64,000 bases of DNA from Nitrospirota bacterium (lineage in GTDB: Bacteria > Nitrospirota > UBA9217): the NCBI GenBank assembly GCA_029858565.1, contig JAOUEV010000005.1:47739-111738 (forward strand). The letters run 5' to 3'. The translations under genes and the position numbers were made by a program. Each line of letters starts with the position of its first letter. The first letter of the stretch is position 1. Shown here one piece after another: positions 4,199 through 57,754 of this stretch. Below the pieces are notes generated by a model that worked only from the letters and a program-made list of their open reading frames with translations, was not told where the DNA came from and did no database searches.

Positions 4199-4663
4199 AT
4201 GAACGGTCATCGAGAATTTGCGGTTCCCAAGGAAAAACAGCTTGTCACGGTCCACCTCCTCGGCGGGGAAATCGGAGAAGGCAACATCTTCCTGGAGTTT
4301 TACCCCGATGCCAGAACGCTCCATCAGAAGATCGTCGCTTTTCTCGAGGACAAGAACGAGTTTTTCCCCCTCTCCAGCGGAGGTGCGCCGGAGTTCGTAA
4401 GGAAAAGGTCCATCCGCATGGTCGAGGTCCACTATCCCGAGGACGAAGACCAGTTCAACATCATGCACGTCGAGCTTGTCACGGTCGTGTTCCGCGACGG
4501 TTCGCAGGTGAGCGGTGACCTGCTGGCCGATGTTCCCGAGGAGAAGAAACGTCTCTCCGACTGCCTCAATCTCCCCTTGAACTTCCTCTGCACGCGCACC
4601 TACGGGAAGGTGAGCTACATCAACAAGGATTCCATCCTGAAGGTCACGACCGCGGGGAAGTAG
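4199..4663 (+). CDS. Hypothetical protein with two repeated small beta domains (DUF6812-like)
   Basis: RBS GAGGAGG, 15 nt after pilT. Two similar halves (VTVHL..GE..G..F / VTVVF..GS..G..L; RLSDCLN...INK..I). Confidence 0.7.
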   Translation: MNGHREFAVPKEKQLVTVHLLGGEIGEGNIFLEFYPDARTLHQKIVAFLEDKNEFFPLSSGGAPEFVRKRSIRMVEVHYPEDEDQFNIMHVELVTVVFRDGSQVSGDLLADVPEEKKRLSDCLNLPLNFLCTRTYGKVSYINKDSILKVTTAGK

Positions 4664-7146: not shown

Positions 7147-7710
7147 TTACTTCTGATTGACCGCATTCATCGCCTTGGTCAGGCCGTCGGCAATGATCAT
7201 CCTGACGGCTTCCGCGGCCCGGTCGATTGCTTCGGCTGCTGCTGCACGTTCCTCTGCGCCAAAGGGGCTCAGAACATAATCAGCAGACTCCATTCCTGTG
7301 GGCGGCCGACCGATCCCCACCCGGACCCGGATGAAATCAGCGGAGCCGAGGCTGTCGATCAGGGAGCGCAGTCCATTATGACCGCCATGGCCGCCTCCGG
7401 TCTTGATGCGGACCGTCCCCAGCGGAAGGTCCAGCTCGTCATGGACAACGATAATGTCCCCCACCGCGGCATAGGCATCGCGCATGACAGCAGCGACAGA
7501 CCTGCCGCTGTCGTTCATAAATGTCTGTGGTTTGGCTACGAGAACGTTCTCGGCACCCAGACGAAGCTTTCCCATGAGCGCGTGATGCTTTTCCTGCGCA
7601 AGCGGGGCGGCCGCCTGCCGCGCTAGCTCGTCGGCTGCCATGAACCCCGCGTTATGGCGGGTACGTTCGTACTTCCTGCCCGGATTGCCGAGCCCGATAA
7701 CGATCCTCAT
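7147..7710 (-). CDS. pth: Peptidyl-tRNA hydrolase
   Basis: GLGNPG..Y..TRHNAGF, KPQTFMNDSG, HDELDL, GGHNGLRS. Confidence 0.98.
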   Translation of the reverse strand: MRIVIGLGNPGRKYERTRHNAGFMAADELARQAAAPLAQEKHHALMGKLRLGAENVLVAKPQTFMNDSGRSVAAVMRDAYAAVGDIIVVHDELDLPLGTVRIKTGGGHGGHNGLRSLIDSLGSADFIRVRVGIGRPPTGMESADYVLSPFGAEERAAAAEAIDRAAEAVRMIIADGLTKAMNAVNQK

Positions 7711-7835
7711 CGTTCTTGACCGGTCCGTCCCCCGCGGGGAGGAAATAGGCTGGGGTGCGTATTGTCAGCATTCAAGGGAAAACCCATCTTCACGCGACCG
7801 CTCTTCAGGGGAGAAGAGAGCGTTCTGAACAGCCC

Positions 7836-7878
7836 CCAAAATATCGGAACCCGAAACAGACTCCTGTTTCGGGTTCCG
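7836..7878 (-). terminator. Hairpin/terminator downstream of rplY
   Basis: 15-bp perfect stem CGGAACCCGAAACAG / CTGTTTCGGGTTCCG (7845-7878), then ATATTTT on the minus strand. Confidence 0.75.
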
Positions 7879-7905
7879 GAGCGTACATGACAGTTGCAGC
7901 TAAGG

Positions 7906-8646
7906 CTACTTCTTGGGAGCGGCTTCCTTGCCCTTGGCGCCGGCCGCGGGAGCAGCTTCCTTGCCCTTGGCGCCGGCCGGTGCAGCAGCCGCTTCGCCTT
8001 CTTCCTTCTTCTTGCCCACAACCTCGGGCTCGCCGGTTTCAGCGGTAGGCGCGGCCGACAGCATGGCCTCAAGCTTCTCTGCCGAGATCGGCGGCTGAAT
8101 GGTCGCGACCGTGGCGTCTCCGTCGGTCAGGATGCGGACGCCCTCAGGGGCCTTGATGTCCCGCACGTGCAGCGACTCGTTCACCTTGAGGTTGGTGATA
8201 TCAACATTGATGGAGTCCGGGATATTGGTCGGAAGGCACTCCACCTCGAGCTGGCGCTGACCGTACTGGAAGATGCCGCCTTCCTTCACGCCGATGGAAT
8301 TGCCCGTGATATGCACAGCCACCTGGATCTTCACCTTTTCGTTCATGGCGACTTCCATGAGGTCAAGATGCATCAGCGCTCCGGAGAGCGGATCGAGCTG
8401 GTAGTCCTTGATCAGCGCCAGGCGCTCGCCTGCGCCGGCACCGCCCTCCAGTTTCAGGTTGATCAGCGCATGTTCGCCGCCCTCCCTGTTCAACACCTTC
8501 GTCACGTCCTTGTTGACCATCGAGATGGGCAGGGACTTGCCGTGGCTGTAGAGGACCGCCGGGATCATCTTGTTCCTGCGCAAACCCCGGGCAACCCCTT
8601 TGCCCGCATTCTCTCTCACTTGTGCCGTCATAGCTACGCGTTCCAT
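7906..8646 (-). CDS. rplY: 50S ribosomal protein L25 (Ctc-type)
   Basis: GKGVARGLRR..MIPAVLYS, HLDL, GVKEGG, VECLPTNIP, LHVRDI. RBS GGAGGA before the ATG at 8646; lies between prs and pth. Confidence 0.96.
   Translation of the reverse strand: MERVAMTAQVRENAGKGVARGLRRNKMIPAVLYSHGKSLPISMVNKDVTKVLNREGGEHALINLKLEGGAGAGERLALIKDYQLDPLSGALMHLDLMEVAMNEKVKIQVAVHITGNSIGVKEGGIFQYGQRQLEVECLPTNIPDSINVDITNLKVNESLHVRDIKAPEGVRILTDGDATVATIQPPISAEKLEAMLSAAPTAETGEPEVVGKKKEEGEAAAAPAGAKGKEAAPAAGAKGKEAAPKK
7915..7980. repeat. 33-nt tandem duplication in the rplY tail (AGAKGKEAAP x2)
   Basis: 7915-7947 and 7948-7980 differ at 2 of 33 positions. Confidence 0.9.
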
Positions 8647-9759: not shown

Positions 9760-9833
9760 TGGTTCGGGGACAGGGAGTCGAACCCCGATTCAAGGCTTCA
9801 AAGGCCTCTGTCCTACCATTAGACGATCCCCGA
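9760..9833 (-). tRNA. tRNA-Gln(UUG)
   Basis: Reverse complement TCGGGGATCGTCTAATGGTAGGACAGAGGCCTTTGAAGCCTTGAATCGGGGTTCGACTCCCTGTCCCCGAACCA forms a cloverleaf with TTG anticodon, TTCGA T-loop, U1-A72 pair and encoded CCA. Usual position between ispE and prs. Confidence 0.97.
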
Positions 9834-26088: not shown

Positions 26089-28167
26089 TTAAACCGTCAT
26101 CAGCCGGATCACAATCCCCAGCGCCACCATGCAGACCAGCACCAGCACGTACACCTGCACCCTGCCAGTCTGCAGCTTGCGCACCTGTTCGCCGAAAGAG
26201 AGCGTCGAGTCGGCAACAAGGTTCACGGCGCCGTCCACGTAGGCCTGATCGAACCAACCGGCGATCCGCGCTTGCGTCCTGAGCGCGAGCCCGCTCACAT
26301 TCACCAGCAGGTCGATGACGTGCCGGTCGAACAGGGCAAGGACGCGGCTCAGGATCTTCGTGCCGGTCACGAACAGGGCGCCGTAGATCTCATCGATATA
26401 ATATTTGTTGTACACCAGCCGGTGAACGGGGCCGAGCCGTTCGGCCAGCATCACCGGGATGTCCGGCCTGGCCAGGTAGAAGAGATAAGCCAGTCCTCCC
26501 CCTGCCAGGGCAGCGCAAACCGACGCAGCCATGAGTACATACTCAATGGGATCGTGCGTCCCTGCGGTCCCGTGATGACCAAGAACCGGGGCCAGGAATT
26601 CGGCGATCCGGTTCGACCCTCCCAAGGCCGCTGGCACGCCGACTAGACCGGCTGCTGCCGAGAAACCTGCAAGGATGATAAGAGGAACCGTGATCGCGGC
26701 CGGCGATTCAGATATCACGCGATCATGAGCATGCTCACCGTGGTCGTCATGATGGTTATGATGTGCATCCCGCCTCGTCTCACCGAAGAATGTCAGAAAG
26801 AGCAGCCGCGCCATATAGAATGCCGTGATGCCCGCTGTCAGGAACCCGGCGAACCAGAGGCCGGGATGGCCGTGTTCGCCGCTCCAGGCCTGCCACAGGA
26901 TCTCGTCCTTGCTGAAGAAGCCGGAGAGCGGAGGCATGCCCATGATGGCAGCAGTGGCGAGAGCAAAGGTTGCGAAGGTCCTGGGCATGTGCTTCCGGAG
27001 ACCGCCCATCTTCCTGATGTCCTGCTCATGGTGCATGCCCAGGATCACGCTGCCCGCGCCCAGGAACAAACAGGCCTTGAAAAACGCGTGAGTCATGACG
27101 TGGAACAGACCGGCTGACCAGGCCCCGACGCCCATGGCGAGAAACATATAGCCGAGCTGGCTCACCGTGGAATAAGCAAGCACCTTCTTAATGTCGTTCT
27201 GGAGGCATCCCATGGTCGCGGCAAGCAAGGCGGTTCCCGCGCCCGTAACCGCGATCACCGCCATTGCCGTGTGGCTCATGGAGAACAGGAAGTTCAGCCT
27301 GCCGACCATATACACGCCCGCGGTCACCATGGTCGCGGCGTGGATCAGCGCGCTGACCGGTGTGGGGCCGGCCATGGCGTCAGGCAGCCAGACGTAGAGC
27401 GGGATCTGGGCAGATTTGCCGGTCGCGCCGAGGAAAAGCGCCAGGCAGATCACGGTCGCGAGGCTTGCGCCGAAGATCGTGGCGTCCTTCAAAAGGTGGG
27501 CATGTTCGGCAAGATACGAAAAACTCAGGATCGACGTCCCGGCGGACGGTCCTGCTGCCTTCGCAAGAAACCAGTAGAGCAGGAATAGACCTGCAATGAA
27601 CCCGAAATCACCCACCCGGTTCACGATAAATGCTTTGTTCGCTGCCGTGGTATTTTGTTTCTCCTGAAACCAGAACCCGATCAGGAGGTACGAGCAGAGC
27701 CCCACCCCTTCCCATCCCACGAACATGAGCAGCGCATTCTCAGCCAGCACCAGAATGAGCATGGAAAAGACGAACAGGTTCAAATAGGCGAAATACCGCG
27801 AGATCCCCTGGTCGCCGTGCATGTACGCGGTTGAGTACACATGGATCAGGAACCCGATCCCCGTGATGATCAGCAGCATCATTGCGCTCAAGGGGTCGAA
27901 GAGGAACGCTATCTCGACCTGCAGCGTTCCCAGGCTCATCCAGGTGTAGGCATGATTGACGATCGCAGCGCCGTGGCTGCCGGCAACGACGATGAATGCA
28001 GCCGTGGACAGCAGAAAGGACAGGAAGACCATCGCGGAGGCGATATATCCCGATGCCGTCCCGCCGAACCGCTCCCGGAGCCGCTTTCCGAAGAAACCGT
28101 TCACCACCGCACCCAGCAGGGGGAGCAGAACGATGATAAAACCATATGATTTAATAAAATAGGTCAT
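26089..28167 (-). CDS. nuoL: NADH-quinone oxidoreductase-like subunit L
   Basis: GWEGVGLCSYLLIGFW, GKSAQIPLYVWLPDAMAGPTPVSALIHAATMVTAG, HAFFKA. Confidence 0.97.
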   Translation of the reverse strand: MTYFIKSYGFIIVLLPLLGAVVNGFFGKRLRERFGGTASGYIASAMVFLSFLLSTAAFIVVAGSHGAAIVNHAYTWMSLGTLQVEIAFLFDPLSAMMLLIITGIGFLIHVYSTAYMHGDQGISRYFAYLNLFVFSMLILVLAENALLMFVGWEGVGLCSYLLIGFWFQEKQNTTAANKAFIVNRVGDFGFIAGLFLLYWFLAKAAGPSAGTSILSFSYLAEHAHLLKDATIFGASLATVICLALFLGATGKSAQIPLYVWLPDAMAGPTPVSALIHAATMVTAGVYMVGRLNFLFSMSHTAMAVIAVTGAGTALLAATMGCLQNDIKKVLAYSTVSQLGYMFLAMGVGAWSAGLFHVMTHAFFKACLFLGAGSVILGMHHEQDIRKMGGLRKHMPRTFATFALATAAIMGMPPLSGFFSKDEILWQAWSGEHGHPGLWFAGFLTAGITAFYMARLLFLTFFGETRRDAHHNHHDDHGEHAHDRVISESPAAITVPLIILAGFSAAAGLVGVPAALGGSNRIAEFLAPVLGHHGTAGTHDPIEYVLMAASVCAALAGGGLAYLFYLARPDIPVMLAERLGPVHRLVYNKYYIDEIYGALFVTGTKILSRVLALFDRHVIDLLVNVSGLALRTQARIAGWFDQAYVDGAVNLVADSTLSFGEQVRKLQTGRVQVYVLVLVCMVALGIVIRLMTV

Positions 28168-30691: not shown

Positions 30692-31816
30692 TTATCTATC
30701 TATTTCCGGAGCCACCACGTCCAGGCTGCCGATGATCGCCACCAGGTCCGCCACCATGACACCCTGGCTGATATGCTCGATGATTGTCATGGACGAGAAC
30801 GAGCCGGTCCTGATCTTGATCCGGAAGGGATTCTTCTTTCCGTCGCTGATGACGTAGAACCCCAGTTCGCCCCGGGGACACTCGGTCCGGACGTAGATCT
30901 CGCCCGCCGGCACCGTGAAAAGCTTCGGCAGTTTTGTCCTGATCTCGCCGTCCTGAGGCAGCCGGTCCAGGGCCTGGCGGATGATCCTGCAGGACTGGAC
31001 AACCTCCTCGATCCGGATGAAGTACCGGTCGTAACTGTCCCCGAGCGTCCCGTATTTCCCTCTGCCGACCGGGATGTCGAAATCAAAGCGGTCGTAGATC
31101 GAATAGGATTCGTCCTTCCGGAGGTCGAAGGCGACGCCGGAAGCGCGCAGGTTCGGTCCGGTCAGGGTGTAGTCGTTCGCTGTTTCCGCGGAAATGACGC
31201 CGACATTCGCCAGCCGGTTGATCAGGATGGTGTTGAAGGAGATCAGCTCATTGAACTCCTCCACGAACTCGTATTCAAGATGATCGACAAAGGCCCGGCA
31301 CTTTTCCGCGAATCCCGGCGGCAGGTCCTGGGCCACGCCGCCGATGCGCACGTAGTTGTGCGTCAGCCGCGCTCCGCAGAGCATTTCGATCAAATCGTTG
31401 AAGGTCTCCCGTTCCCGCAGCGCGTGCACAAAGGGCGTGACCGCGCCCAGGTCCAACAGCAGCGCGCCGAAGCCGATGAAATGGCTCGCGATGCGCGAAA
31501 GCTCCGCCGCGATCACGCGCAGATACTCTGCCTTTTCCGGGACCGCGACCCCTGCCAGCCGCTCCACCGCCACGGCATACCCCAGGTTGCAGTTGACCGA
31601 CGCCACGTAATCGATGCGGTCCGTGTAGGGCATGAACCCCTGCCAGGTGACCCGCTCGGCGATCTTCTCGATGCCCCGGTGCAGGAACCCGATATCCGGG
31701 GTTGCCTTCACCATCATTTCGCCGTCGGTCTGGAGGATGAAGCGCAGCACGCCGTGCGTGCTCGGATGGTGGGGCCCCATGTTCAGGACCATTTCCTGGG
31801 TAGAGTATTTGGACAT
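30692..31816 (-). CDS. nuoD: NADH-quinone oxidoreductase-like subunit D
   Basis: NMGPHHPSTHGVLR, GFLHRGIEK, DRIDY, C-terminal EIDR. No NiFe-binding CxxC motifs. Confidence 0.96.
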   Translation of the reverse strand: MSKYSTQEMVLNMGPHHPSTHGVLRFILQTDGEMMVKATPDIGFLHRGIEKIAERVTWQGFMPYTDRIDYVASVNCNLGYAVAVERLAGVAVPEKAEYLRVIAAELSRIASHFIGFGALLLDLGAVTPFVHALRERETFNDLIEMLCGARLTHNYVRIGGVAQDLPPGFAEKCRAFVDHLEYEFVEEFNELISFNTILINRLANVGVISAETANDYTLTGPNLRASGVAFDLRKDESYSIYDRFDFDIPVGRGKYGTLGDSYDRYFIRIEEVVQSCRIIRQALDRLPQDGEIRTKLPKLFTVPAGEIYVRTECPRGELGFYVISDGKKNPFRIKIRTGSFSSMTIIEHISQGVMVADLVAIIGSLDVVAPEIDR

Positions 31817-41386: not shown

Positions 41387-42757
41387 TCACCCAACCACAT
41401 TATACTCCCGCACGCGATACTTGGCGCCGAGCTCTTCCGCGATCCTGCGGCAGGCTTCGATGTCCACTTCCGGCGCTGAAACGACCGTGGCGGTGACATC
41501 GGGAATATACTTGGTCGCTTCCTTGATGAATTCCTTCACCGCGTCATAGGTCTGCGGTCCGAACTTGGGCTGGGAGAGCCTTGCGTAGACCTCGGCATTC
41601 TGGCCGTTCAGGCTGACGCTCACCGCGTCCACAAGGCCCTGAAGCTCCGGCAGGATATTCCGTTTGTGGATCAGGTTGCCATGGCCGTTCGTGTCGATCC
41701 GGACCTTGCCGCCCTTCTTCTTCACTTCCGCGGCAACCGCCTTGATCACCTCGATCCGCAGGGTCGGCTCCCCGTACCCGCAGAACACGATCTCGTCATA
41801 CCTCTTCGGATCGCCGATCTCCTTGATGAGATCATCTGCGGTCGGCTCCTCGGCAAGCCGGAGATTGTGACCTTTCACATAATCGGTGAAGTAGCGCACG
41901 CAGAACGTGCATGCCGAAGTGCAGCGGTTCGTGACATTGAGGTACAGCGAGTTCCTGATGGGATAGGTGATCTTGCCTTTTTTCGGGACATCTCCGATGC
42001 CGAAAAGCTGCATGGCATTGAAGCTCGTGATCCGCGCCACGTCATCGAAGGATAATCCCTTTGCCTTCGCGATCTCTTCGGCCGTGAACCGGACATAGGC
42101 GGGCTCGTTCCGTTTTCCGCGGTATGCCTGGGGAGCGAGATAGGGAGCATCGGTCTCGATCAGCATCTGCTCGATCGGCACCTGCTTCACCACGTCCCGC
42201 AAAACCTGGGCCTTGGGAAAGGTGACCGGCCCGGCAATGGAAATGTAAAATCCCAGGTCCATGAGCTGCCGGGCATACTCGATGTCCCCGGAAAAACAGT
42301 GCATGATCCCGCCGAGCACCGGGTCCCAGGCCTCTTTCAGGATCCTGAGCGTATCCTCGTGAGCATCCCGGTCGTGGACAATTATCGGCAGCTGCAGTTC
42401 TCGGGCCTCGTGCAGCATGTCCCGGAACTTGCGCTGCTGCACCGACCGCTGGGTGTGTTCGTAGTAGTAATCCAGGCCGATCTCGCCGTAGGCGACCACC
42501 TTCTTGTGCTTCGCGAAATGGCGGATGACCTCATAGGCGGGATGGAGGATGTCCTTGGCCTCGTGGGGATGGATGCCCACGGCCGCGTACACGCAGTCGT
42601 GTTTCTCAGCAAGCAGCACCGCGTCGCGGCTTGATTCGACCGTAGTGCCGATGGTGATGATATAGTCAACGCCCGCTTCTTTTGCGCGCTTGATCACCTC
42701 GTCGCGGTCTTCGTTGAACTCGCGCATTTCGAGATGCGCGTGGGTGTCGATGAGCAC
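41387..42757 (-). CDS. TatD nuclease fused to a TatD-associated radical SAM domain
   Basis: IDTHAHL, GIHPH, GEIGLDY, HCFSG, ETDAPYLAP, then LYLNVTNRCTSACTFC (CxxxCxxC), FCGYGEP and TNG. Confidence 0.95.
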   Translation of the reverse strand: MLIDTHAHLEMREFNEDRDEVIKRAKEAGVDYIITIGTTVESSRDAVLLAEKHDCVYAAVGIHPHEAKDILHPAYEVIRHFAKHKKVVAYGEIGLDYYYEHTQRSVQQRKFRDMLHEARELQLPIIVHDRDAHEDTLRILKEAWDPVLGGIMHCFSGDIEYARQLMDLGFYISIAGPVTFPKAQVLRDVVKQVPIEQMLIETDAPYLAPQAYRGKRNEPAYVRFTAEEIAKAKGLSFDDVARITSFNAMQLFGIGDVPKKGKITYPIRNSLYLNVTNRCTSACTFCVRYFTDYVKGHNLRLAEEPTADDLIKEIGDPKRYDEIVFCGYGEPTLRIEVIKAVAAEVKKKGGKVRIDTNGHGNLIHKRNILPELQGLVDAVSVSLNGQNAEVYARLSQPKFGPQTYDAVKEFIKEATKYIPDVTATVVSAPEVDIEACRRIAEELGAKYRVREYNVVG

Positions 42758-48235: not shown

Positions 48236-50146
48236 CTACTTGAGCTCCGACGCGGGGTCGTTCGGCGCCCTGAGCGCGGCATTGGAGGTGAACAGGAGCA
48301 CCTGGGTCTTTGTACCGAGTACGCGAAGCAGCTGGCATGCCTGCTGCTGGCGCGGAGGGTCCATGCCCGCGAAAGGATCGTCAAGCAGGAACGGCAGCCT
48401 TCGCTTCCCCACGATCGCCTCGACAATGGCCGCGCGCAAGCAGAAGCAGGCCATGAGCCGGGTCCCGTCGCTCAGGGTATCAAAGGACAGCCGGTTCCCC
48501 GCCGCGTCCTGAACAACCGGATGCCCTTCCTGGCCGGTCTCGATCTTGACGTACCGTCCGCCGCTCACCGCGGTGATATTCCGCTGCGCCGCGCTCTCGA
48601 CGGCAGGCACCAGTATCTCCATCTCGATCCCGCTGATCCGGCTCGCGAGAGCGACCAGATCGTGCAGGTCCGAACCGCCGGCCCCCCCGGGTGCCGCGGA
48701 GGGCGCGCTGAAATCGGTCATTGCGCCGAAATCGGCGAAACCAGGGTCCTGCTGCACAGCCGGCGCGACAGCTCCCTCGATCCGTTCGATCTCCTGCCGG
48801 AGGCTGTAAGTGTCCACTGCGTACTTTGCCACGGCCCTGGACGCCTGTTCGAGGGTCGCGACCTCGGCCTGCTGGGCCGCGTATTCCGCCCGGACATCTT
48901 CCTCTGCCTGGCCGCCGAGGGCCATCCGCTGCTGTTCCGCGGCCTCCTCGCGCATTTCCCGGAAATACCGGTAATTGTCCGCCTTTTCCCTGAGCTCAGC
49001 CGCGCTCTTCGACTCCGTGGCCTTCATGTGCTTCAGGATGACTGCCCCGGCGTCCTGGAATTTCTTCTCAATTGCCGCCCGTTCCTTTACCAGCCCGTCG
49101 ATCTCCTTCTGCACTGCCGTATGCTGCGCATTCTTCCGGGAACTGTTGTACCAGCCCGCGACGATCAGGAGCAGCGACGCCAGGATCAGGATGGGGAAAT
49201 AGATCGCCTGCTCGTCCAACAGGATGAACAGGCCCAGGATCAGCGCGATGCCGCCCATGGCGGCGCCGGCAATGAAAAGTTTCTCGGTCACCATGTTCGC
49301 CACGGGAAGGGTGTCGCGCTGCATTGTCAGCGCTTCGATGTCCTTCTCCACGTCGTTCGTCTTGGCGGCCCGCTCGTTCTCTTCCTGTTCGTGGGTGCTG
49401 ATCAGCTCGGCAAGATTTTCGGGAAGCCCTTTGCACGCGGAAAGCTCTGCGAGCTGCGTCTCGACCTCTTCGAGCCGTCCCCTGCTCTCTTCCAGCCGCT
49501 CCAGCTTCTTGGCGATCTCGGTCAACCTTACACGGGCGGCCTCGGCCTTGTACTCGGCATCAGCAGCATCTTCGGCCTTCTGCAGCGTCTCCTTGAGCTC
49601 GGCAAGCTTCCTCTCCTGGGCAGCGTTCCTCCCCGCCGGAGCGGGGGCGGGAGTCGGCGCTGCGGCGCGCCGCGGCGTGTCCGTCGAGGGAACCGCTGCC
49701 GCTGTCGACGGGGCGGTACAGGCATCGCGCCGGAACACCAGCAGGCGGCCGTAATCGTCTGCAGTGATCCCGGGCAGCAGACCGTCCATGAACTGCGCAG
49801 TGCTGTCCCAGTCCTTGTGAAGAAGGGAGAATTCCTTGGTGGAAGCGTTGTACTTGGAGAGGTTGACGGCGCGCCTGGTGAGGTCCTGGATCACCCGGTA
49901 GTACGACCCGTCGTCGGAGTAGACGACAAGCGCGCCCCGCGATCCCTCGGGAGCTGCCCGCGACACCAGGATATCCATCTTCGACGGATCGTTCACCGGG
50001 AACAGAAGGAGGACAATGCTGTCCACCGACGTCGTTTTGCCCGACTCGTTCCCGGCGCTGATAATATTGAACCCACCTTGAAACCTGAGGCGTGCCAACT
50101 GCTGAAAACCGCGAATGCCCTGCATCACCAGTTCCACCAGGAACAT
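48236..50146 (-). CDS. SMC/Rad50-like coiled-coil ATPase with a central transmembrane hairpin (YhaN-like)
   Basis: Walker A GNESGKTT, long coiled coils, two hydrophobic helices, signature LSDGT, Walker B LLDDPF, QVLLFT. ATG at 50146 follows AGGAG. Confidence 0.85.
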   Translation of the reverse strand: MFLVELVMQGIRGFQQLARLRFQGGFNIISAGNESGKTTSVDSIVLLLFPVNDPSKMDILVSRAAPEGSRGALVVYSDDGSYYRVIQDLTRRAVNLSKYNASTKEFSLLHKDWDSTAQFMDGLLPGITADDYGRLLVFRRDACTAPSTAAAVPSTDTPRRAAAPTPAPAPAGRNAAQERKLAELKETLQKAEDAADAEYKAEAARVRLTEIAKKLERLEESRGRLEEVETQLAELSACKGLPENLAELISTHEQEENERAAKTNDVEKDIEALTMQRDTLPVANMVTEKLFIAGAAMGGIALILGLFILLDEQAIYFPILILASLLLIVAGWYNSSRKNAQHTAVQKEIDGLVKERAAIEKKFQDAGAVILKHMKATESKSAAELREKADNYRYFREMREEAAEQQRMALGGQAEEDVRAEYAAQQAEVATLEQASRAVAKYAVDTYSLRQEIERIEGAVAPAVQQDPGFADFGAMTDFSAPSAAPGGAGGSDLHDLVALASRISGIEMEILVPAVESAAQRNITAVSGGRYVKIETGQEGHPVVQDAAGNRLSFDTLSDGTRLMACFCLRAAIVEAIVGKRRLPFLLDDPFAGMDPPRQQQACQLLRVLGTKTQVLLFTSNAALRAPNDPASELK

Positions 50147-50230
50147 AGAGCGCACTCCTTTCGCCACGGAGACTTGAGTGATAACTATAGCGCAAGTGCG
50201 CTCAAAGCGCAACAAGGAAAAATGGGATAA

Positions 50231-51748
50231 TCACAGTTTTTCAAGCGCTTTGAAGAGCGCTTCCGCTTTCTGGAGGGTCTCCTGGTATTCACGCTCCGGA
50301 TCCGAATCCGCGACAATGCCGGCTCCGACCTGCACGTACGCCGCATCGTCCTTCACCACAAAGGTCCGGATGATGATGTTCAGATCCAGGTCGCCGGTGT
50401 TCGCAATATAGCCGAGCGAGCCCGTATAAAGACCGCGGCTGACCGGCTCCAGTTCGTCGATGATCTCCATGCAGCGGACCTTGGGCACGCCGGTGATCGT
50501 CCCGCCGGGAAAGACCGCGCGGACCAGGTCGAACCCGTCCCTGCCCGCGGCGAGTTCTCCGCGAACATTCGAAACAATGTGGATCACGTGGGAGTAATCT
50601 TCCACGACCATCATTTCATCGACCGACACGGTCCCGTAATCGCAGACCTTTCCCAGATCGTTCCGCTCCAGGTCGAGCAGCATGATGTGCTCGGCCCGTT
50701 CCTTCTCATTTGTCAGGAGTTCGGCGGTAAGCTCTCTCGTCTCGTCGAAATCACGGCCCCGTTTCCGGGTCCCGGCGATCGGCCGCGTGTCCGCCGCCCT
50801 GCCGGACAAACGCACGAGCCGCTCCGGCGAGGAGCTTACGACCGTCAGGTCACCGAACTCGACATAGGCCGCGAAGGGGGAAGGATTGATCTCCCGCAGC
50901 ACGTTGTACAAGTGGAGCGGATCACGCCCATGGAGGTTCGCCGAGAACCGCTGGGACAGGTTCGCCTGATAGATGTCACCTGCGGAAATATACTCCTTGG
51001 CGCGGCGCACCATGGATTCGAAACGTTCCTTGGTCATCTGCGGCGTGATCGCAATAGCTCCGCCTGGCCCCGCGGACCGCTCTTTTTTGGAAGGCGCTCC
51101 CGATCCCAGCAGTTCCCGGATACGGATAAGTCTTGCCGCAGCTGCGTCATACAACCGTCCCCACTCGTCAGCCGCCGGTCTGCGATATCCCATTTCCTGC
51201 TCCCGCGCCCCGGGATTCACCAGAAGCCAGGCCTTGTTCTGAACGTGGTCATAAGCTGCGACAAGGTCCACGAAGAGGAAGCAGGACTCGGGAACAGCAA
51301 GATCGTCAGCGGCCTGATGCGGCACCTTCTCGAACTGCCGCACGAAATCATAGGAAAAGAACCCCACCGCGCCGCCGGTAAAAGGAGGGAGCCCCGGAAG
51401 CGGCTCGGTGCGGTAGTTCGCCATCAGGTCCCTGAGCTTGGCAAGCGGTTTTCGCGTGACCGCTGCCCGTTTTCCGTACTTCCCCTCGGGCGCGACGGTC
51501 CAGTGGAGATCGATGGATTCGCCGCGGGAGCGGAAGATGAGGTAGGGATCAGCGGAGACAAAGGAATACCGTCCGATCTTGCCATGAACACGGACGCTTT
51601 CGAGCAGTGCGGCATGACCGAGAGGCCGCAGTGCCTCAAGCACAGCAAGGGGAGGGAACTGCGCGGGATCGAACTCCAGCGCGATCGGCGTGATCATGCC
51701 TTTTCCTGCCGCGGACAGGAACTCTTCTCGGGAAGGATGCTGTGCCAT
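50231..51748 (-). CDS. pabB: Chorismate-binding component I, most like aminodeoxychorismate synthase PabB
   Basis: LLES, YQANLSQR, NPSPFAAY, SSPERL, RPIAGTR, EHIMLLDLERNDLG, FPGGTITGVPKVRCMEII. A TrpE function is not excluded. Confidence 0.7.
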   Translation of the reverse strand: MAQHPSREEFLSAAGKGMITPIALEFDPAQFPPLAVLEALRPLGHAALLESVRVHGKIGRYSFVSADPYLIFRSRGESIDLHWTVAPEGKYGKRAAVTRKPLAKLRDLMANYRTEPLPGLPPFTGGAVGFFSYDFVRQFEKVPHQAADDLAVPESCFLFVDLVAAYDHVQNKAWLLVNPGAREQEMGYRRPAADEWGRLYDAAAARLIRIRELLGSGAPSKKERSAGPGGAIAITPQMTKERFESMVRRAKEYISAGDIYQANLSQRFSANLHGRDPLHLYNVLREINPSPFAAYVEFGDLTVVSSSPERLVRLSGRAADTRPIAGTRKRGRDFDETRELTAELLTNEKERAEHIMLLDLERNDLGKVCDYGTVSVDEMMVVEDYSHVIHIVSNVRGELAAGRDGFDLVRAVFPGGTITGVPKVRCMEIIDELEPVSRGLYTGSLGYIANTGDLDLNIIIRTFVVKDDAAYVQVGAGIVADSDPEREYQETLQKAEALFKALEKL

Positions 51749-51757
51749 GGAAAGAAA

Positions 51758-51786
51758 ACTCTAAACGCTTCTTCCGGCAGGGTCAA
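51758..51786 (-). promoter_or_regulatory. Sigma70 promoter of the pabB-like gene
   Basis: TTGACC-17 nt-TAGAGT, 9 nt before the ATG at 51748. Confidence 0.65.
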
Positions 51787-51832
51787 GGGGTTTTTTTATT
51801 ATTGCGGTGCTTCTTCCGGCCTTGACAATCTA

Positions 51833-51880
51833 TGCTATACTATGGATAGAGATCAGGTCAGGATGGGGTCTTTGAAAACT
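51833..51880 (+). promoter_or_regulatory. Extended -10 promoter and boxA-like antitermination motif
   Basis: TGCTATACT (51833-51841) and GTCTTTGAAAACT (51868-51880). Confidence 0.55.
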
Positions 51881-51890
51881 TGCATGCAGA

Positions 51891-52202
51891 AGAGGCGTTG
51901 CCGAACCCACACCAGAAGGTGTACACATGTTGACCCGTTACGAGGGGAATAAGGCAGCGGTTGCACGGGCGCCGGGATCGGAGCAGAAGCCACAAGTTGA
52001 GCGGCCAGCTCTCCGGTTCGCTGTACAAGGACCCGGCCAGCCGTAAGAGCCGAAAGCCCCGAAGTTCCGGTCGACGCGGGATTTAGCAGTATGCTTCATC
52101 GGTTTTGCTGGTCAGAACCAAAGAAGTGGAGGTTGTATCACCCGCGGTCACCGGAACTCGACGGAACGTTAACCAATCGGTTCGGTGGCAACGCCTTTTT
52201 TT
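51891..52202 (+). ncRNA. Candidate ~310-nt structured RNA of unknown family
   Basis: 5'/3' closing helix AGGCGTTGCC/GGCAACGCCT plus GAACC/GGTTC, several internal helices with G-U pairs on the + strand, a terminal T7, and no long credible ORF. Confidence 0.6.
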
Positions 52203-52370
52203 ATCACTCTCCGCAGAACGGTACTCCCATCCACCCCATTCCCGCATGTACGGCATCGCTCAAGAGAGACCTGCATCGCACGACAGCGAATACATCTTGT
52301 TGATCGCACAGGTCCGGATTCGATCCTCCGGGAACTTGCCCTAACTCCACGACCATCTGGCGGAACAACC

Positions 52371-53621
52371 ATGGGAATACTCGCGATGATCCTCGCGGGC
52401 GGCAAAGGCGAACGGCTGCACCCGCTCACCCTGCACCGCGCGAAACCGGCCGTCCCTTTTGGCGGCCTGTACCGCATTGTCGATTTCACTCTTTCCAACT
52501 GCATCAATTCGCATATCCGCAAGATCGTGGTCCTGACCCAGTACAAGTCGCTCTCCCTGGACAAGCATTTGCGGCTCGGATGGAATGTCTTTTCCGGAGA
52601 ACTGGACGAATACGTCATCTCCGTGCCGCCCCAGCAGCGCGTCGGGGACAAATGGTATCAGGGCACTGCCGATGCCATCTACCAGAACATCTACATGATC
52701 GAGAAGGACGCGCCGGAATATCTGCTCATCCTTGCCGGCGACCACATCTACAAGATGGACTACGCAGAAATGCTCCGGTTCCATCAGGAACAGGGAGCCG
52801 ACGCTACGGTGGCGGCGATCGAGGTCCCGATCAACCAGGCCACGTCCTTCGGCGTGATCGAAGTGGACGAAAAAAGCCGCATCGTGGGCTTTGAGGAGAA
52901 ACCCAAAAATCCGAAACCGATCCCCGGGAAACCGGACCTCGCCTTTGCCTCCATGGGGATCTATTTGTTCAACACGCGGACCATCCTCGAACACCTGCGG
53001 TTCGACGCGCTCCAGGACACGGCGCACGACTTCGGCAGGAACATCATCCCCACCATGATGCGCTCGGCGCGCGTCTGCACCTACAACTTCATCGATAAGA
53101 ACCGGAAAGCGGCGAAATACTGGCGGGACGTGGGGACCGTCGATGCTTACTGGGAGGCGAACATGGACCTGGTGAGCGTCGATCCCCTGCTGAACCTCTA
53201 TGACCGGTCATGGCCCATCCGGACCCATCAGGCGCAGAATCCTCCGGTCAAGTTCGTCTTTGCCCAGGAGAAGAAGGGGGGGAGACTCGGAACCGCGCTG
53301 GATTCGATCGTGGCCAATGGCTGCATCGTGAGCGGCGGCCGGGTGCAGAACTCGGTCCTGTCGCCGAACGTCCGGGTGAACAGCTTCAGCGAAGTGCACG
53401 AATCGATCCTCATGGAGAATGTGGACATCGGAAGGCACTGCAGGATCCGGAAGGCGATCATTGACAAGGATGTGAAGGTCCCTCCCGGGACTGTTATCGG
53501 ATATGACCCGGAACAGGACCGGCAGCGGTTCTATATCAGCCCCGGCGGCATCGTGGTCATTGCCAAAGGCACGGAGATGGACGGCACCTCGCTTTCCGTG
53601 ACCGAGGACGAACTCCCCTGA
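52371..53621 (+). CDS. glgC: Glucose-1-phosphate adenylyltransferase
   Basis: ILAGGKGERLHPLT..RAKPAVPFGG.YRI, WYQGTADA, GDHIYKMDY, FEEKP, YWRDVGT. The true start is ATG 52371, not 52185. Confidence 0.98.
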   Translation: MGILAMILAGGKGERLHPLTLHRAKPAVPFGGLYRIVDFTLSNCINSHIRKIVVLTQYKSLSLDKHLRLGWNVFSGELDEYVISVPPQQRVGDKWYQGTADAIYQNIYMIEKDAPEYLLILAGDHIYKMDYAEMLRFHQEQGADATVAAIEVPINQATSFGVIEVDEKSRIVGFEEKPKNPKPIPGKPDLAFASMGIYLFNTRTILEHLRFDALQDTAHDFGRNIIPTMMRSARVCTYNFIDKNRKAAKYWRDVGTVDAYWEANMDLVSVDPLLNLYDRSWPIRTHQAQNPPVKFVFAQEKKGGRLGTALDSIVANGCIVSGGRVQNSVLSPNVRVNSFSEVHESILMENVDIGRHCRIRKAIIDKDVKVPPGTVIGYDPEQDRQRFYISPGGIVVIAKGTEMDGTSLSVTEDELP

Positions 53622-55538: not shown

Positions 55539-55910
55539 ATGATCTGGACTCCCCTTCGGAGCAACGGGCTCCGGTGCCGTGCATTGATCCTTGCGAGTAT
55601 CGTCATGCTCCTGCTGCTATCCGGATGTGCGTCCCTGTTCCCTGAACAGCACAGGTCCGGCCGCGGAAGCGGCGACTCCCGGTCCCCGCAGCGCCAGTCG
55701 GTGCGGACGGGCGCAGATGCCAGGGACCAGCAGCATTATTACGATATCGGGCTGCAGCATTATTCCAAGGAAAACTACGATAGGGCGAAACGTGCGTTCC
55801 AGCATGTGGTTGACATGGGTCCTTCCACGCCCCTGGGGCTGAAAGCGCAGGAGAACCTGAAGAAGATCCAGCAGATCGAGAAAACCCTCCAGGAGATCGA
55901 ATCAAAATGA
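55539..55910 (+). CDS. Small lipoprotein with a single TPR-like unit
   Basis: Lipobox LSGC; YYDIGLQHY...YDRAKRAFQHVV...P. Its stop overlaps the cyclase start (ATGA). Confidence 0.75.
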   Translation: MIWTPLRSNGLRCRALILASIVMLLLLSGCASLFPEQHRSGRGSGDSRSPQRQSVRTGADARDQQHYYDIGLQHYSKENYDRAKRAFQHVVDMGPSTPLGLKAQENLKKIQQIEKTLQEIESK

Positions 55911-57754
55911 CCGACCACTCGGGAAATGGAAAAGACGGGACCCTGGTCGCCGCACCGCCTTCCGCCAATGAGATGCAGGGGCCGCCGGAACAACCGAGCG
56001 AAGCGAAACCGGTCAGACACCGCCGTCCTTTTTTCATGCGCTTGTCACGATTTCTGTCATCGCTCAGCGTCCGGTCCAAGATCGCGGGCATGCTGCTGCT
56101 GGTGCTCTGCACGGCCGTGCTCTCCCTGGGCCTTTACACCTTTACCCGCCAGAATTCGCTTCTCCGGAGCGAGATGAGGAGCCGCGCAGAGACCCTGGTC
56201 CAGCAGCTGGCCTCGGCGGGCAAGGAAGGGCTGCTGACCAAACAGGAGCTTCCGGTCGTTTCCACGATCTCGGACATCCAGAACCGCGTCGACGTTGTCT
56301 ATGCCCTGGTCCTGGATGATGAAGGAAGGGTCTTTGCGCACAGCGATTTTTCGAAAAAGAACGCGGTGCTCACCGGCCCGGTGGACCGGGCGGCCATGAA
56401 AGCCGACGGCCTGCTGTTCCAGGAGGTCGACCTGATCGGGGATCCCGTGCTCGACGCGGCAGTTCCCGTGCTGCTCAAGTCCAAGAACCTCCGGATCGGC
56501 GTCGCCCGGATCGGGCTGTCGCAGAAAGCGCTGAATGAACAGATCAGCGCACAGCTGCGGACCTATCTCTGGATCGCGCTCGGTTTCATCTGCGGAGGCC
56601 TGGTGATCTCGTTCCTCGTAGCACGCATGCTCACCAAACCGCTGGACTCCCTGGAGGAAGGCATCCAGATCGTTGCCAAGGGAGACCTGCGCAAGCTCGT
56701 GCAGGTCCGATCGAATGATGAGATCGGCAGACTGACGAACGCCTTCAACCAGATGATCCTGAGCCTCCGGGAAAAGCTCCTGATGGAAAAATACCTTTCC
56801 CAGACAACGGTCCTGAGCATCAAGGAGCACCGCGATGTCTCCCAGCTGAAGCTGGGCGGCGAGCGGAAATACGTAACCGCACTGTTCTCCGACGCCCGGG
56901 GGTTCACGTCCCTTTCCGAAAAAATGACGCCCGAGGAAGTGGTCAGCCTGATGAACGTCTATCTGAACCTGCAAACCACGGTAATCCATCAGTTCGGCGG
57001 CATCGTCGACAAGTTCGTGGGCGATGAGGTCATGGCGATCTTCGAGGGCAAGGGTATGGAGGTCAATGCGGTCCGGGCCGCCGTGGAGATCCAGCATTAC
57101 TGCGAGGCATTGAACGCTGCGCGTGCCGCTGCAGGCGAGCAGACCGTCAGCGTCGGCATCGGTCTGAACAGCGGCGACGTGGTCATGGGCAACATGGGCT
57201 CCGAGGACCATATGGATTACACGGTGATCGGCGACAGCATCAATGTGGCTGCCCGGCTTTGCGGCGTAGCCCAGCCCGGACAGGTCCTGATCAGCAAGTC
57301 CACGGCCGATGAAACCGGCGACGAGACGACCCGGAACGAGCTGCCTGCGGTCCGGCTCAAGGGCAAGGACCAGCCGATCAGCATTGCAGAGATCGTTTCC
57401 GTAAAGGGCGGTTCCCGCCGCTATATGCGGAAAGAAACGGACATCCCGGTCTCCTACAGTCTGGAGGGTTTCTCCGATGAGCTGAACTCGGCCATGGTCA
57501 AGAACATCGGCCCCGCCGGCTGCCTGCTCCAGACTGAAGTTCCCATTGCCATCGGTTCGAAGCTGAACATCACTTTCAACATTTACGCGCTCGGGACGGT
57601 CACGGTCCACGCGGCGGTCTATCATGCCAGGAAGATCGAACGGCAATATTATATCGGCCTCTGCTTCGAGAACCTGCAGCAGGAGATCCGGCACAAGATC
57701 GTTCAGTGGATCCATCAGGTGAACTCGGGCATCGGCGAGGGGCTCTTTCTTTAG
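55907..57754 (+). CDS. Membrane class III adenylate cyclase (TM-sensor-TM-HAMP-cyclase-PilZ)
   Basis: Two TM helices, HAMP (TKPL...DEIGRL..AFNQM), FSDARGFT, DKFVGDEVMA, DYTVIGDSINVAARL, C-terminal RRYMR...NIGPAG PilZ-like domain. Confidence 0.9.
   Translation: MTDHSGNGKDGTLVAAPPSANEMQGPPEQPSEAKPVRHRRPFFMRLSRFLSSLSVRSKIAGMLLLVLCTAVLSLGLYTFTRQNSLLRSEMRSRAETLVQQLASAGKEGLLTKQELPVVSTISDIQNRVDVVYALVLDDEGRVFAHSDFSKKNAVLTGPVDRAAMKADGLLFQEVDLIGDPVLDAAVPVLLKSKNLRIGVARIGLSQKALNEQISAQLRTYLWIALGFICGGLVISFLVARMLTKPLDSLEEGIQIVAKGDLRKLVQVRSNDEIGRLTNAFNQMILSLREKLLMEKYLSQTTVLSIKEHRDVSQLKLGGERKYVTALFSDARGFTSLSEKMTPEEVVSLMNVYLNLQTTVIHQFGGIVDKFVGDEVMAIFEGKGMEVNAVRAAVEIQHYCEALNAARAAAGEQTVSVGIGLNSGDVVMGNMGSEDHMDYTVIGDSINVAARLCGVAQPGQVLISKSTADETGDETTRNELPAVRLKGKDQPISIAEIVSVKGGSRRYMRKETDIPVSYSLEGFSDELNSAMVKNIGPAGCLLQTEVPIAIGSKLNITFNIYALGTVTVHAAVYHARKIERQYYIGLCFENLQQEIRHKIVQWIHQVNSGIGEGLFL

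Follow-up and report, generated by a model that had tools for sequence, protein, structure and literature searches.

The window considered here is the whole analysed stretch of 64,000 nucleotides (nt) from a Nitrospirota bacterium (assembly GCA_029858565.1, contig JAOUEV010000005.1, positions 47,739 to 111,738 of the forward strand). Within it, a 620-nt spacer lies between a minus-strand gene of the TrpE/PabB family on one side and glgC on the other. The spacer very probably contains the gene for a stand-alone, expressed, structured non-coding RNA (ncRNA) of a family new to Rfam, preceded by a leader with a boxA of the ribosomal RNA (rRNA) type. An RNA of this kind, with its own promoter, had been proposed from the letters of the sequence; this is referred to below as the original prediction. 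The unit is delimited by blastn matches in relatives, which start at 51890-51894 and end at 52201-52204, by alignments A1 and A2, and by pieces of metatranscriptome contigs. The conserved, mature-like part starts at ~51890, and the promoter and the boxA are situated outside it, in a leader of ~44 nt. The features of the locus, in window coordinates, are the following:

51833-51841, plus strand: extended -10 box of the form TGnTAnnnT, TGCTATACT, with TGnTAnnnT in 54 of 55 copies
51867-51880, plus strand: boxA-like leader motif, the 14-mer GGTCTTTGAAAACT, the same sequence as the 16S leader boxA of this organism
51892-52203, plus strand: structured RNA unit of ~312-315 nt
52196-52202, plus strand: T7, a U-tract right after the closing helix P1, giving a terminator-like 3' end; at least five T in 47 of 55 copies
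50231-51748, minus strand: TrpE/PabB-family gene (Pfam Chorismate_bind and Anth_synt_I_N), divergent neighbour, context only
52371-53621, plus strand: glgC (NCBIfam glgC, 495 bits against a cut-off of 424.9), downstream neighbour, context only

The RNA is predicted to have a complex fold, in which P1 and P2 close the molecule and are followed by a hairpin (P3), a long-range helix (P4), a domain made of P5, P6 and P7, and a rod (P8). The comparison was based on alignment A2 of 55 unique copies, the consensus of which comprises 78 pairs in 16 helices, and on an enlarged set of 115 unique copies. The elements of the fold are as follows:

51892-51902 with 52187-52197, plus strand: P1, 97% canonical
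51903-51907 (GAACC) with 52179-52183, plus strand: P2, 99.6% canonical, double-sided changes in four of five pairs
52179-52197, plus strand: 3' strands of P2 and P1, with a 3-nt bulge between them
51910-51921, plus strand: P3, hairpin CACC/GGTG, 96% canonical
51935-51939 (CCGUU) with 52160-52164 (GACGG), plus strand: P4, long-range, 94% canonical, variation from U-A to U-G
51944-52060, plus strand: domain closed by P5 (GGGG 51944-47 with CCCC 52057-60), 86% canonical, double-sided changes
51953-59 with 52042-51, plus strand: P6, 90-93% canonical, double-sided changes
~52044-52056, plus strand: conserved junction in the P5 domain
51977-52017, plus strand: P7, hairpin of 14 pairs, 11 with double-sided changes, conserved 7-nt loop AAGUUGA at 51994-52000
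52063-52158, plus strand: P8, irregular rod, base 52063-71 with 52150-58, conserved apex 52093-52127

Covariation in these helices is strong, and it indicates that the fold is real. In A2, 89.7% of the pair cells are canonical, compared with 31.6-45.4% in a control with the 3' partners slid 1-3 columns; with the 115 unique copies the value is 90.3%. Double-sided changes occur in 53 of the 78 pairs, against 28.0 +/- 2.6 in shuffles, and none of 500 shuffles attained the observed value on any of five measures. Because kin sequences can beat shuffles even when there is no structure, the slid control, which preserves relatedness, is the stronger control here. The helices differ in the way they vary. 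P1 has nine core pairs, seven of them G-C; seven core pairs are invariant in the 55 copies, and one varies solely from U-A to U-G. P2 changes on both sides, with one pair being A-U in 42 copies and G-C in 13. The apex helices of P8 are 97% canonical, while its base is 78% canonical with double-sided changes in eight of nine pairs. The expectation that the helices would be conserved and would covary in relatives was borne out in both sets.

The helices that the original prediction had drawn by eye were scored on the 54 other A2 copies. The pairing of the two ends, AGGCGTTGCC at 51893-51902 with GGCAACGCCT at 52187-52196, was placed exactly, and P1 is 98% canonical by this measure. The helices GAACC/GGTTC (100%), GCTTC/GAAGT (97%), ACACC/GGTGT (89%), GGTTTTG/CAGAACC (86%), ATCGGAG/CTCCGGT (79%) and the rod helix GTTCCGGT/ACCGGAAC (78%) are likewise retained, while AGTTG/CAGCT (61%) and CGCGGG/CCCGCG (56%) are doubtful. 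Three further elements, the helices CCCGT/ACGGG (41%) and GCCGGG/CCCGGC (42%) and the pseudoknot CAGCGG/TCGCTG (43%), lie at or near the level of the slid control (32-45%) and are not supported. Instead of eye-drawn helices, covariation makes AAGUUGA a hairpin loop and pairs CCGUU at 51935-51939 with GACGG. Another pseudoknot, between GUUGAG of the P7 loop and CUCAAC before the 3' strand of P4, was considered and rejected, as changes in the loop (by inspection, C at column 118 in several copies and U at column 116 in two) are unmatched by the partner and the pairing competes with P4.

The plus strand has a minimum free energy of -133.3 kcal/mol (z = -4.2 against dinucleotide shuffles). Since the minus strand folds nearly as well (z = -3.9), folding energy alone cannot fix the strand. 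G-U cells outnumber A-C cells, 285 vs 163 overall and 204 vs 62 in well-aligned helices, although the structure was derived on the plus strand, which somewhat favours an excess of G-U there. The earlier argument that G-U pairs fix the orientation holds to a moderate degree. The plus strand is further fixed by the promoter and the boxA, which lie at its 5' end, and by the U-tail, which lies at its 3' end.

The claim of a promoter of its own is supported by the extended -10 box, which is found where it had been placed and is conserved as listed above. In 52 copies it stands 52-81 nt ahead of the 5' strand of P1 (GGCG); two paralogues have a distance of 31-32 nt, and paralogues have -10 boxes of their own. 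In the window, transcription would be expected to start near 51848. The boxA motif follows. BoxA recruits NusB and NusE, which protects untranslated RNAs such as rRNA and CRISPR leaders from Rho. A boxA-like GTCTTTGAAAACT had been reported at 51868-51880 and is present there, and the label is upheld by the identity of the 14-mer with the 16S leader boxA of the same genome. Of the 55 copies, 53 carry the pattern G-N-TCTTT-G-A-A-A at a distance of 22-48 nt upstream of P1. In the 14 copies with computed distance, the motif lies 28-48 nt past the start of the extended -10 box and precedes P1; in the window, the 5' strand of P1 begins 12 nt past the end of the 14-mer.

The organism's own 16S gene is located at C115:2667-4227, and a copy of the 14-mer is found at C115:2541, 126 nt upstream of it, after a promoter of the form TTGACA-N17-TAATAT. 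Among the motif matches listed, the full 14-mer has only two sites in the genome, the 16S leader and this RNA, and the 16S-23S spacer contains a one-base variant. In the rRNA operon itself, the boxA segment is the leader strand of the 16S leader-trailer helix and a near-perfect complement to the trailer (C115:2505-2662 with 4244-4339). The gamma-proteobacterial boxA consensus is given as GYTCTTTAANA (PMC5725501). The window motif fits 9 of the 11 positions of this consensus. It is well founded, on the basis of this identity, to regard the leader motif as the organism's own rRNA boxA and as a candidate loading site for Nus factors.

At the 3' end, the T7 described after the closing helix is present at 52196-52202, and its T run is conserved; in a separate set of 80 metagenome pattern matches, described below, the tail begins with TTTTT in 65. 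A G+C-rich P1 followed by a U-tract corresponds to an intrinsic terminator, but the helix is not a compact hairpin, as it encloses ~290 nt. A leader-trailer pairing extending beyond P1 was also sought and rejected: duplex energies against shuffles gave a median z of -0.02, with 4 of 55 copies below -2.

The RNA is not one of the families in Rfam. Rfam 15 (4227 covariance models) was searched at the gathering score over the whole window, where the sole match is a transfer RNA (tRNA) at 9763-9833. At E<=10 there was no match on either strand of 51700-52420, nor any similarity to large-subunit (LSU) or small-subunit (SSU) rRNA, and at E<=1 no match was obtained in the loci of eight relatives, paralogues included. 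The Rfam check thus favours novelty. The exclusion of tmRNA, RNase P RNA, signal recognition particle (SRP) RNA and 6S RNA, which had been made by eye, is supported by the presence of all four elsewhere in the genome, each above its cut-off and on another contig: RNase P RNA with 276 bits (C140), tmRNA with 202.5 (C22), 6S RNA with 89.3 (C27) and SRP RNA with 72 (C39). A Y RNA was rejected as well, since no Ro/TROVE gene (PF05731) is found in the organism's own genome, which is 100% complete. No conserved reading frame was found; across 115 copies, the longest plus-strand open reading frame (ORF) has between 6 and 104 aa, and 1026 of 1293 gap runs in the alignment are not multiples of three. 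No description of the RNA was found in the literature searched, supplementary files being outside reach. From sequence comparison, the locus is assigned to a new family outside Rfam, of the kind of a stand-alone structured ncRNA.

The distribution of the RNA was examined in 36 genomes from its own family and, for the rest of the phylum, in 24 genomes searched by blastn and 123 genomes from 21 families searched by the covariance model R1. R1 comprises only the 5' 128 positions, and distant homologues with an altered 5' half could escape it. By blastn, 30 of 36 same-family genomes and none of the 24 others were matched. R1 matched 27 of 27 family genomes, G010 and G024 in addition, and three of the four remaining genomes. 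With both methods combined, the RNA is present in 35 of 36 family genomes, and the sole genome without it is 71% complete. Among the 123 genomes of other Nitrospirota families, R1 gave two weak and short matches (E ~1e-3, 43-47 nt), which were taken as noise. The genomes searched include none of the same order or class beyond the family, and the family seems to be alone in its class within this sample.

A scan for the pattern of the two ends extended the search to one genome per species (185,579 species). This pattern fixes the sequences of P1 and P2, and homologues with other ends escape it. It gave 51 loci, of which 47 are labelled Nitrospirota, Nitrospirae, Nitrospiria or Nitrospiraceae, one of them as isolate UBA9217. 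The other four (Thermoflexus, Kribbella, a metagenome-assembled genome of Pseudomonadales and Chloroflexi UBA5189) have neither the internal motifs nor a T-tail and were set aside as chance matches. In metagenome contigs, 96 stretches matched the pattern; 80 of them, taken as loci, gave 64 new unique pattern matches, 60 of which are family members by nhmmer. The pattern scan of viral contigs gave no match, and a phage origin was rejected on this ground. The RNA family looks universal in one uncultured Nitrospirota family, which probably corresponds to the GTDB class UBA9217. This class of uncultured Nitrospirota is described as predominant in aquifers and as common in aquifers and soils (PMC11033732).

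The RNA is single-copy in its own genome, while in several others the copy number is two to four; these copies frequently lie in tandem, at least 71 nt apart. Such multiple or tandem copies are seen at L028 (G004, 367-1565), L184, L161, L013, on C12 of G008 and in G027. A divergent paralogue, type B, keeps P1, P2, P4 and the general layout and differs in the loop of P7 and the apex of P8; where type-A copies have a near-invariant AAGUUGA loop, type B has a loop of the GNRA type. The exact sequence of P1 is kept even in type B, which suggests that the sequence itself is recognised, beyond pairing alone.

Expression was assessed in metatranscriptomes. Nine runs contained small shares of the stretch, and four of them, from three studies (X6, X9, X11 and X22), were used by means of assembled contigs of at least 80% likeness. 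In all four, the contigs fall only on 51890-52204 (bins 51879-52219). No contigs fall on the leader, on the stretch leading to glgC or on the beginning of the TrpE-like gene, which is uninformative as relatives diverge there. Peaks of summed word depth range from ~1,200 (X9) to ~8,400 (X22), and the highest depths of single contigs are 2775.6 (X11), 1135.5 (X9), 768.7 (X22) and 328.2 (X6), with the proviso that assembled contigs give neither the strand, nor the ends, nor the true level. Bins on glgC reach 2-26, and the listed contigs on this gene have a depth of 2.4-3. A ~100-fold excess over glgC in RNA libraries is hard to explain by contaminating DNA. The discrete transcript that had been predicted is supported as far as contigs cover just the RNA unit at high depth.

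Some contigs carry joints at the ends of the unit. In one contig of X11, adapter sequence abuts 51896, which hints at an end of the molecule there. In X22, three contigs representing distinct sequence variants run from the 3' end (52196, 52197 or 52204) into the 5' end (51890 or 51891) across only 1-5 letters, at contig depths of 317.5, 42.5 and 37.7; no such head-to-tail joint is listed in the other three runs. The closest genomic tandem copies are 71 nt apart, unlike these joints. Such joints could stem from a circular form, from template switching where an RNA is abundant, or from abutting copies that lie outside the sample. In one contig of X6, position 51890 directly follows the 3' part of a tRNA. 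A linkage to tRNA was rejected, this contig being probably a chimera of library or assembly or derived from an unsampled relative: by aragorn, the oriented loci (1.5-7 kb) are all free of tRNA genes, and none thus lies near the genomic copies.

Taken together, these results are best read as a separate gene that yields a stable, untranslated RNA of ~315 nt at a high level of expression. The inference of a stand-alone ncRNA made in the original prediction is strengthened by the lack of an Rfam match, by covariation, by the conserved promoter, boxA and U-tail, by the variable downstream gene, and by contigs restricted to the unit. The divergent TrpE/PabB-like gene adjoins the RNA in 29 of 30 loci, and the same holds for each of the 21 additional loci listed; it heads a conserved block with an SMC-like ATPase, tmk, holB, a PSP1 protein and metG. 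Its earlier label, pabB, is correct as to the TrpE/PabB family and unsupported as to PabB itself, as the gene scores under both NCBIfam cut-offs (trpE_most, 476.9 bits against 517.7; PabB-clade2, 394.2 against 408.55).

A first alternative is that the RNA is a trans- or cis-acting regulator tied to this block and not a general ribonucleoprotein RNA. Such a role would agree with the left-hand gene order, which is kept across the family with the RNA always at its edge, and with the common divergent promoter region of ~145 nt, which contains inverted and direct repeats. However, gene order among kin persists without any functional link, additional copies of the RNA are located elsewhere, and base-pairing regulators need neither such a size, nor a multi-junction fold, nor the abundance that the RNA appears to have. 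This explanation is considered quite unlikely.

A cis-acting leader, that is, a riboswitch or attenuator controlling the downstream gene (glgC here) by means of a terminator formed by P1 and the U-tract, is very improbable. In its favour, the U-tract ends 168 nt before glgC on the same strand, and the first downstream ORF, by a crude ORF call in 43 copies, is co-oriented in ~25. It is, however, convergent in ~18, and glgC follows the RNA in only 6 of 29 relatives' loci, all confined to the genus group of the window; elsewhere the 3' neighbour is a thioesterase, a methyltransferase, an ABC ATPase or an unidentified ORF. No constant, co-oriented and coherent downstream gene of the sort that a riboswitch or cis-regulatory leader would have was found among the 43 first ORFs and the 29 relatives' loci. 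Because the 3' genes vary and are often convergent, the RNA is not regarded as a leader of the gene downstream. Moreover, tandem copies occur in succession with a -10 box each, the metatranscriptome depth is at least ~100 times that of the glgC contigs, and boxA is typical of untranslated RNAs.

The opposite orientation, in which the minus strand would serve as a 5' leader of the TrpE/PabB-like gene, for example as a T-box or a tryptophan-sensing attenuator, is likewise very improbable. In its favour are the constancy of that neighbour and the good folding of the minus strand. The excess of G-U over A-C cells on both counts, the T-run at the 3' end of the plus strand, and the extended -10 and boxA at its 5' end in 54 and 53 of 55 copies all speak against it. 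In addition, the minus-strand promoter-like site of the gene, from 51786 to 51758, lies between the gene and the RNA, neither strand matches a T-box or any other Rfam family, and extra copies of the RNA are found away from the first one. That the RNA is a very divergent form of a known one missed by the Rfam models (RNase P, tmRNA, 6S/Ms1, SRP, Y RNA, OLE, ROOL, GOLLD or raiA) is scarcely credible: similar size, paired ends and apparent abundance would fit, but the genome has the four universal RNAs at other sites, each with a score above its cut-off, the searches at E<=10 here and at E<=1 in eight relatives' loci were negative, and the 100%-complete genome has no Ro/TROVE gene.

For the stand-alone RNA gene, the known system it most resembles in its working is the rRNA transcription unit, of which it would be a miniature. 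As in an rRNA operon leader (rrnTAC, with NusB/NusE/NusA/NusG/SuhB), a boxA identical to that of the organism's own operon follows shortly after the predicted promoter, and the two ends of an untranslated structured RNA are brought together by a long-range helix. The distance between boxA and the 5' strand of this helix is likewise short and fairly fixed; in Enterobacteriaceae, boxC is reported 18-19 nt after boxA (PMC10250234). In contrast to the rRNA operon, the product here is a non-rRNA molecule of ~315 nt, the boxA lies outside the helix whereas the own rrn boxA pairs with the trailer, no leader-trailer pairing extends beyond P1, and a U-tract comes right after the helix.

A model of Nus-tethered folding and termination is tentatively put forward by analogy with this system; it is judged somewhat less probable than even. 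RNA polymerase would start ~44 nt upstream of P1. The nascent boxA would recruit NusB/NusE and other Nus factors and shield the untranslated transcript from Rho. The Nus complex would then hold the 5' strand of the closing helix close to the channel through which the RNA exits, as has been proposed for 16S rRNA, where NusB-bound boxA is described as anchoring boxC, 18-19 nt downstream, until the trailer emerges (PMC10250234). On emergence of the 3' strand ~290 nt later, P2 and P1 would zip and, together with the U-tract, end the transcript; the boxA leader would probably be trimmed afterwards. The mature RNA may act in trans as a scaffold or active part of a ribonucleoprotein, with the invariant P1 sequence and the conserved loops as possible protein or processing sites. 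A ribonucleoprotein function is a guess, although the size, the junctions, the invariant P1 and the conserved loops point more to a catalytic RNA or the core of a ribonucleoprotein than to a base-pairing regulator.

Several points weigh against this picture of the gene and its transcription. The invariance of P1 is partly forced in the pattern-derived sequences, although it is also seen in copies found by BLAST or by the model. Two paralogues have no boxA, which means that the motif is not indispensable. A terminator scan (loops 3-8) did not call the 3' end, because P1 closes a 'loop' of ~290 nt; P1 as an intrinsic terminator of such a shape is unproven, and the U-tract could serve otherwise. 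Nus-modified polymerase may also resist intrinsic terminators, according to one account of rRNA transcription (PMC10250234). Most of the metatranscriptome contigs come from relatives that are 80-95% alike, and the edges at 51890 and 52204 are partly the limit of conservation. A role in local regulation, instead of a general one, could also be read from the TrpE/PabB-like gene, which is a fixed divergent neighbour. Finally, all members come from uncultured organisms, and the case is built on sequence data.

An extension of the model is that the miniature rRNA-like pathway yields a covalently closed circle: the helix held by boxA and Nus factors would stop the polymerase, the leader would be cut, and the ends held by P1 would be ligated. 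It is proposed because the 3'-to-5' joints in X22 occur in three variants and genomic tandems are never closer than 71 nt, and it is unlikely on the whole. The organism's own genome encodes RtcB, which offers weak support at best. An apparently complete rtcB copy is located on C5 at 26743-27819; N-terminal (31270-31737) and C-terminal (7329-8159) parts of another lie ~23 kb apart on the same contig, as if disrupted by an insertion. If the extension were true, the RNA would be an abundant, chromosomally encoded, circular structured RNA and the core of a new ribonucleoprotein or ribozyme.

Other known RNAs and leaders share single aspects with the stand-alone RNA gene. BoxA is reportedly present before CRISPR arrays, in work by Stringer et al. 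from 2020. Outside rRNA, boxA has also been described in the 5' untranslated region of suhB and in other mRNAs (PMC5725501). As in suhB and these other cases, the motif is part of a non-rRNA leader and presumably acts on Rho-dependent termination; unlike them, it precedes a discrete structured ncRNA gene. Similarly to 6S RNA, RNase P RNA and tmRNA, the RNA has a stand-alone gene, paired ends, an apparently high abundance and a near-universal presence in its clade. It differs from them in architecture and in being confined to one family in the genomes searched, and all three are present separately.

Large, complex and covarying bacterial RNAs are rare, and those that have been studied are ribozymes, ribonucleoprotein cores or unusual assemblies. 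The raiA motif, OLE, ROOL, GOLLD and HEARO are long, multi-junction, covarying, lineage-limited RNAs that were found by comparative genomics. The RNA is like these in being long, multi-junction and lineage-limited. It is unlike them in that it has no Rfam match to any, that none of its copies is in viral contigs, and that no tRNA gene occurs within the loci of 1.5-7 kb. A boxA leader and a terminator-like closing helix are not known as features of these classes. The unusual features of the gene are precisely the boxA leader on a small RNA gene and the long-range helix that would double as a terminator stem. The RNA is of interest as near-universal in an uncultured Nitrospirota lineage, apparently very abundant in environmental transcriptomes and absent from Rfam. 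It would offer a clear example of a small, discrete gene for a structured RNA that makes use of a boxA of the rRNA type, and the combination of boxA, short spacer, closing helix and U-tract would make a compact natural test bed for Nus-chaperoned long-range helices.

Further observations concern the surroundings. The divergent promoter region (51749-51892) contains the inverted repeat GTCAAGG (51783-89) / CCTTGAC (51820-26), the arms of which include both outward-facing TTGAC -35-like boxes, as well as a direct repeat, CTTCTTCCGGC, at 51769 and 51810. At these repeats, the RNA gene and the TrpE-like gene may share a site for a regulator. Directly after the latter follows an SMC/AAA_23-like ATPase of 659 aa (48236-50215, minus strand); the pair of genes is kept across the family, 44-65% identical, and the ATPase is an odd partner for a chorismate-using enzyme. 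Farther away in the window, a single ORF of 456 aa (41387-42757, minus strand) encodes an unusual fusion of a TatD DNase domain with a radical SAM domain, and a sensor protein encoded at 55907-57754 (plus strand) combines sCache, HAMP and adenylate/guanylate cyclase domains with a C-terminal PilZ domain.

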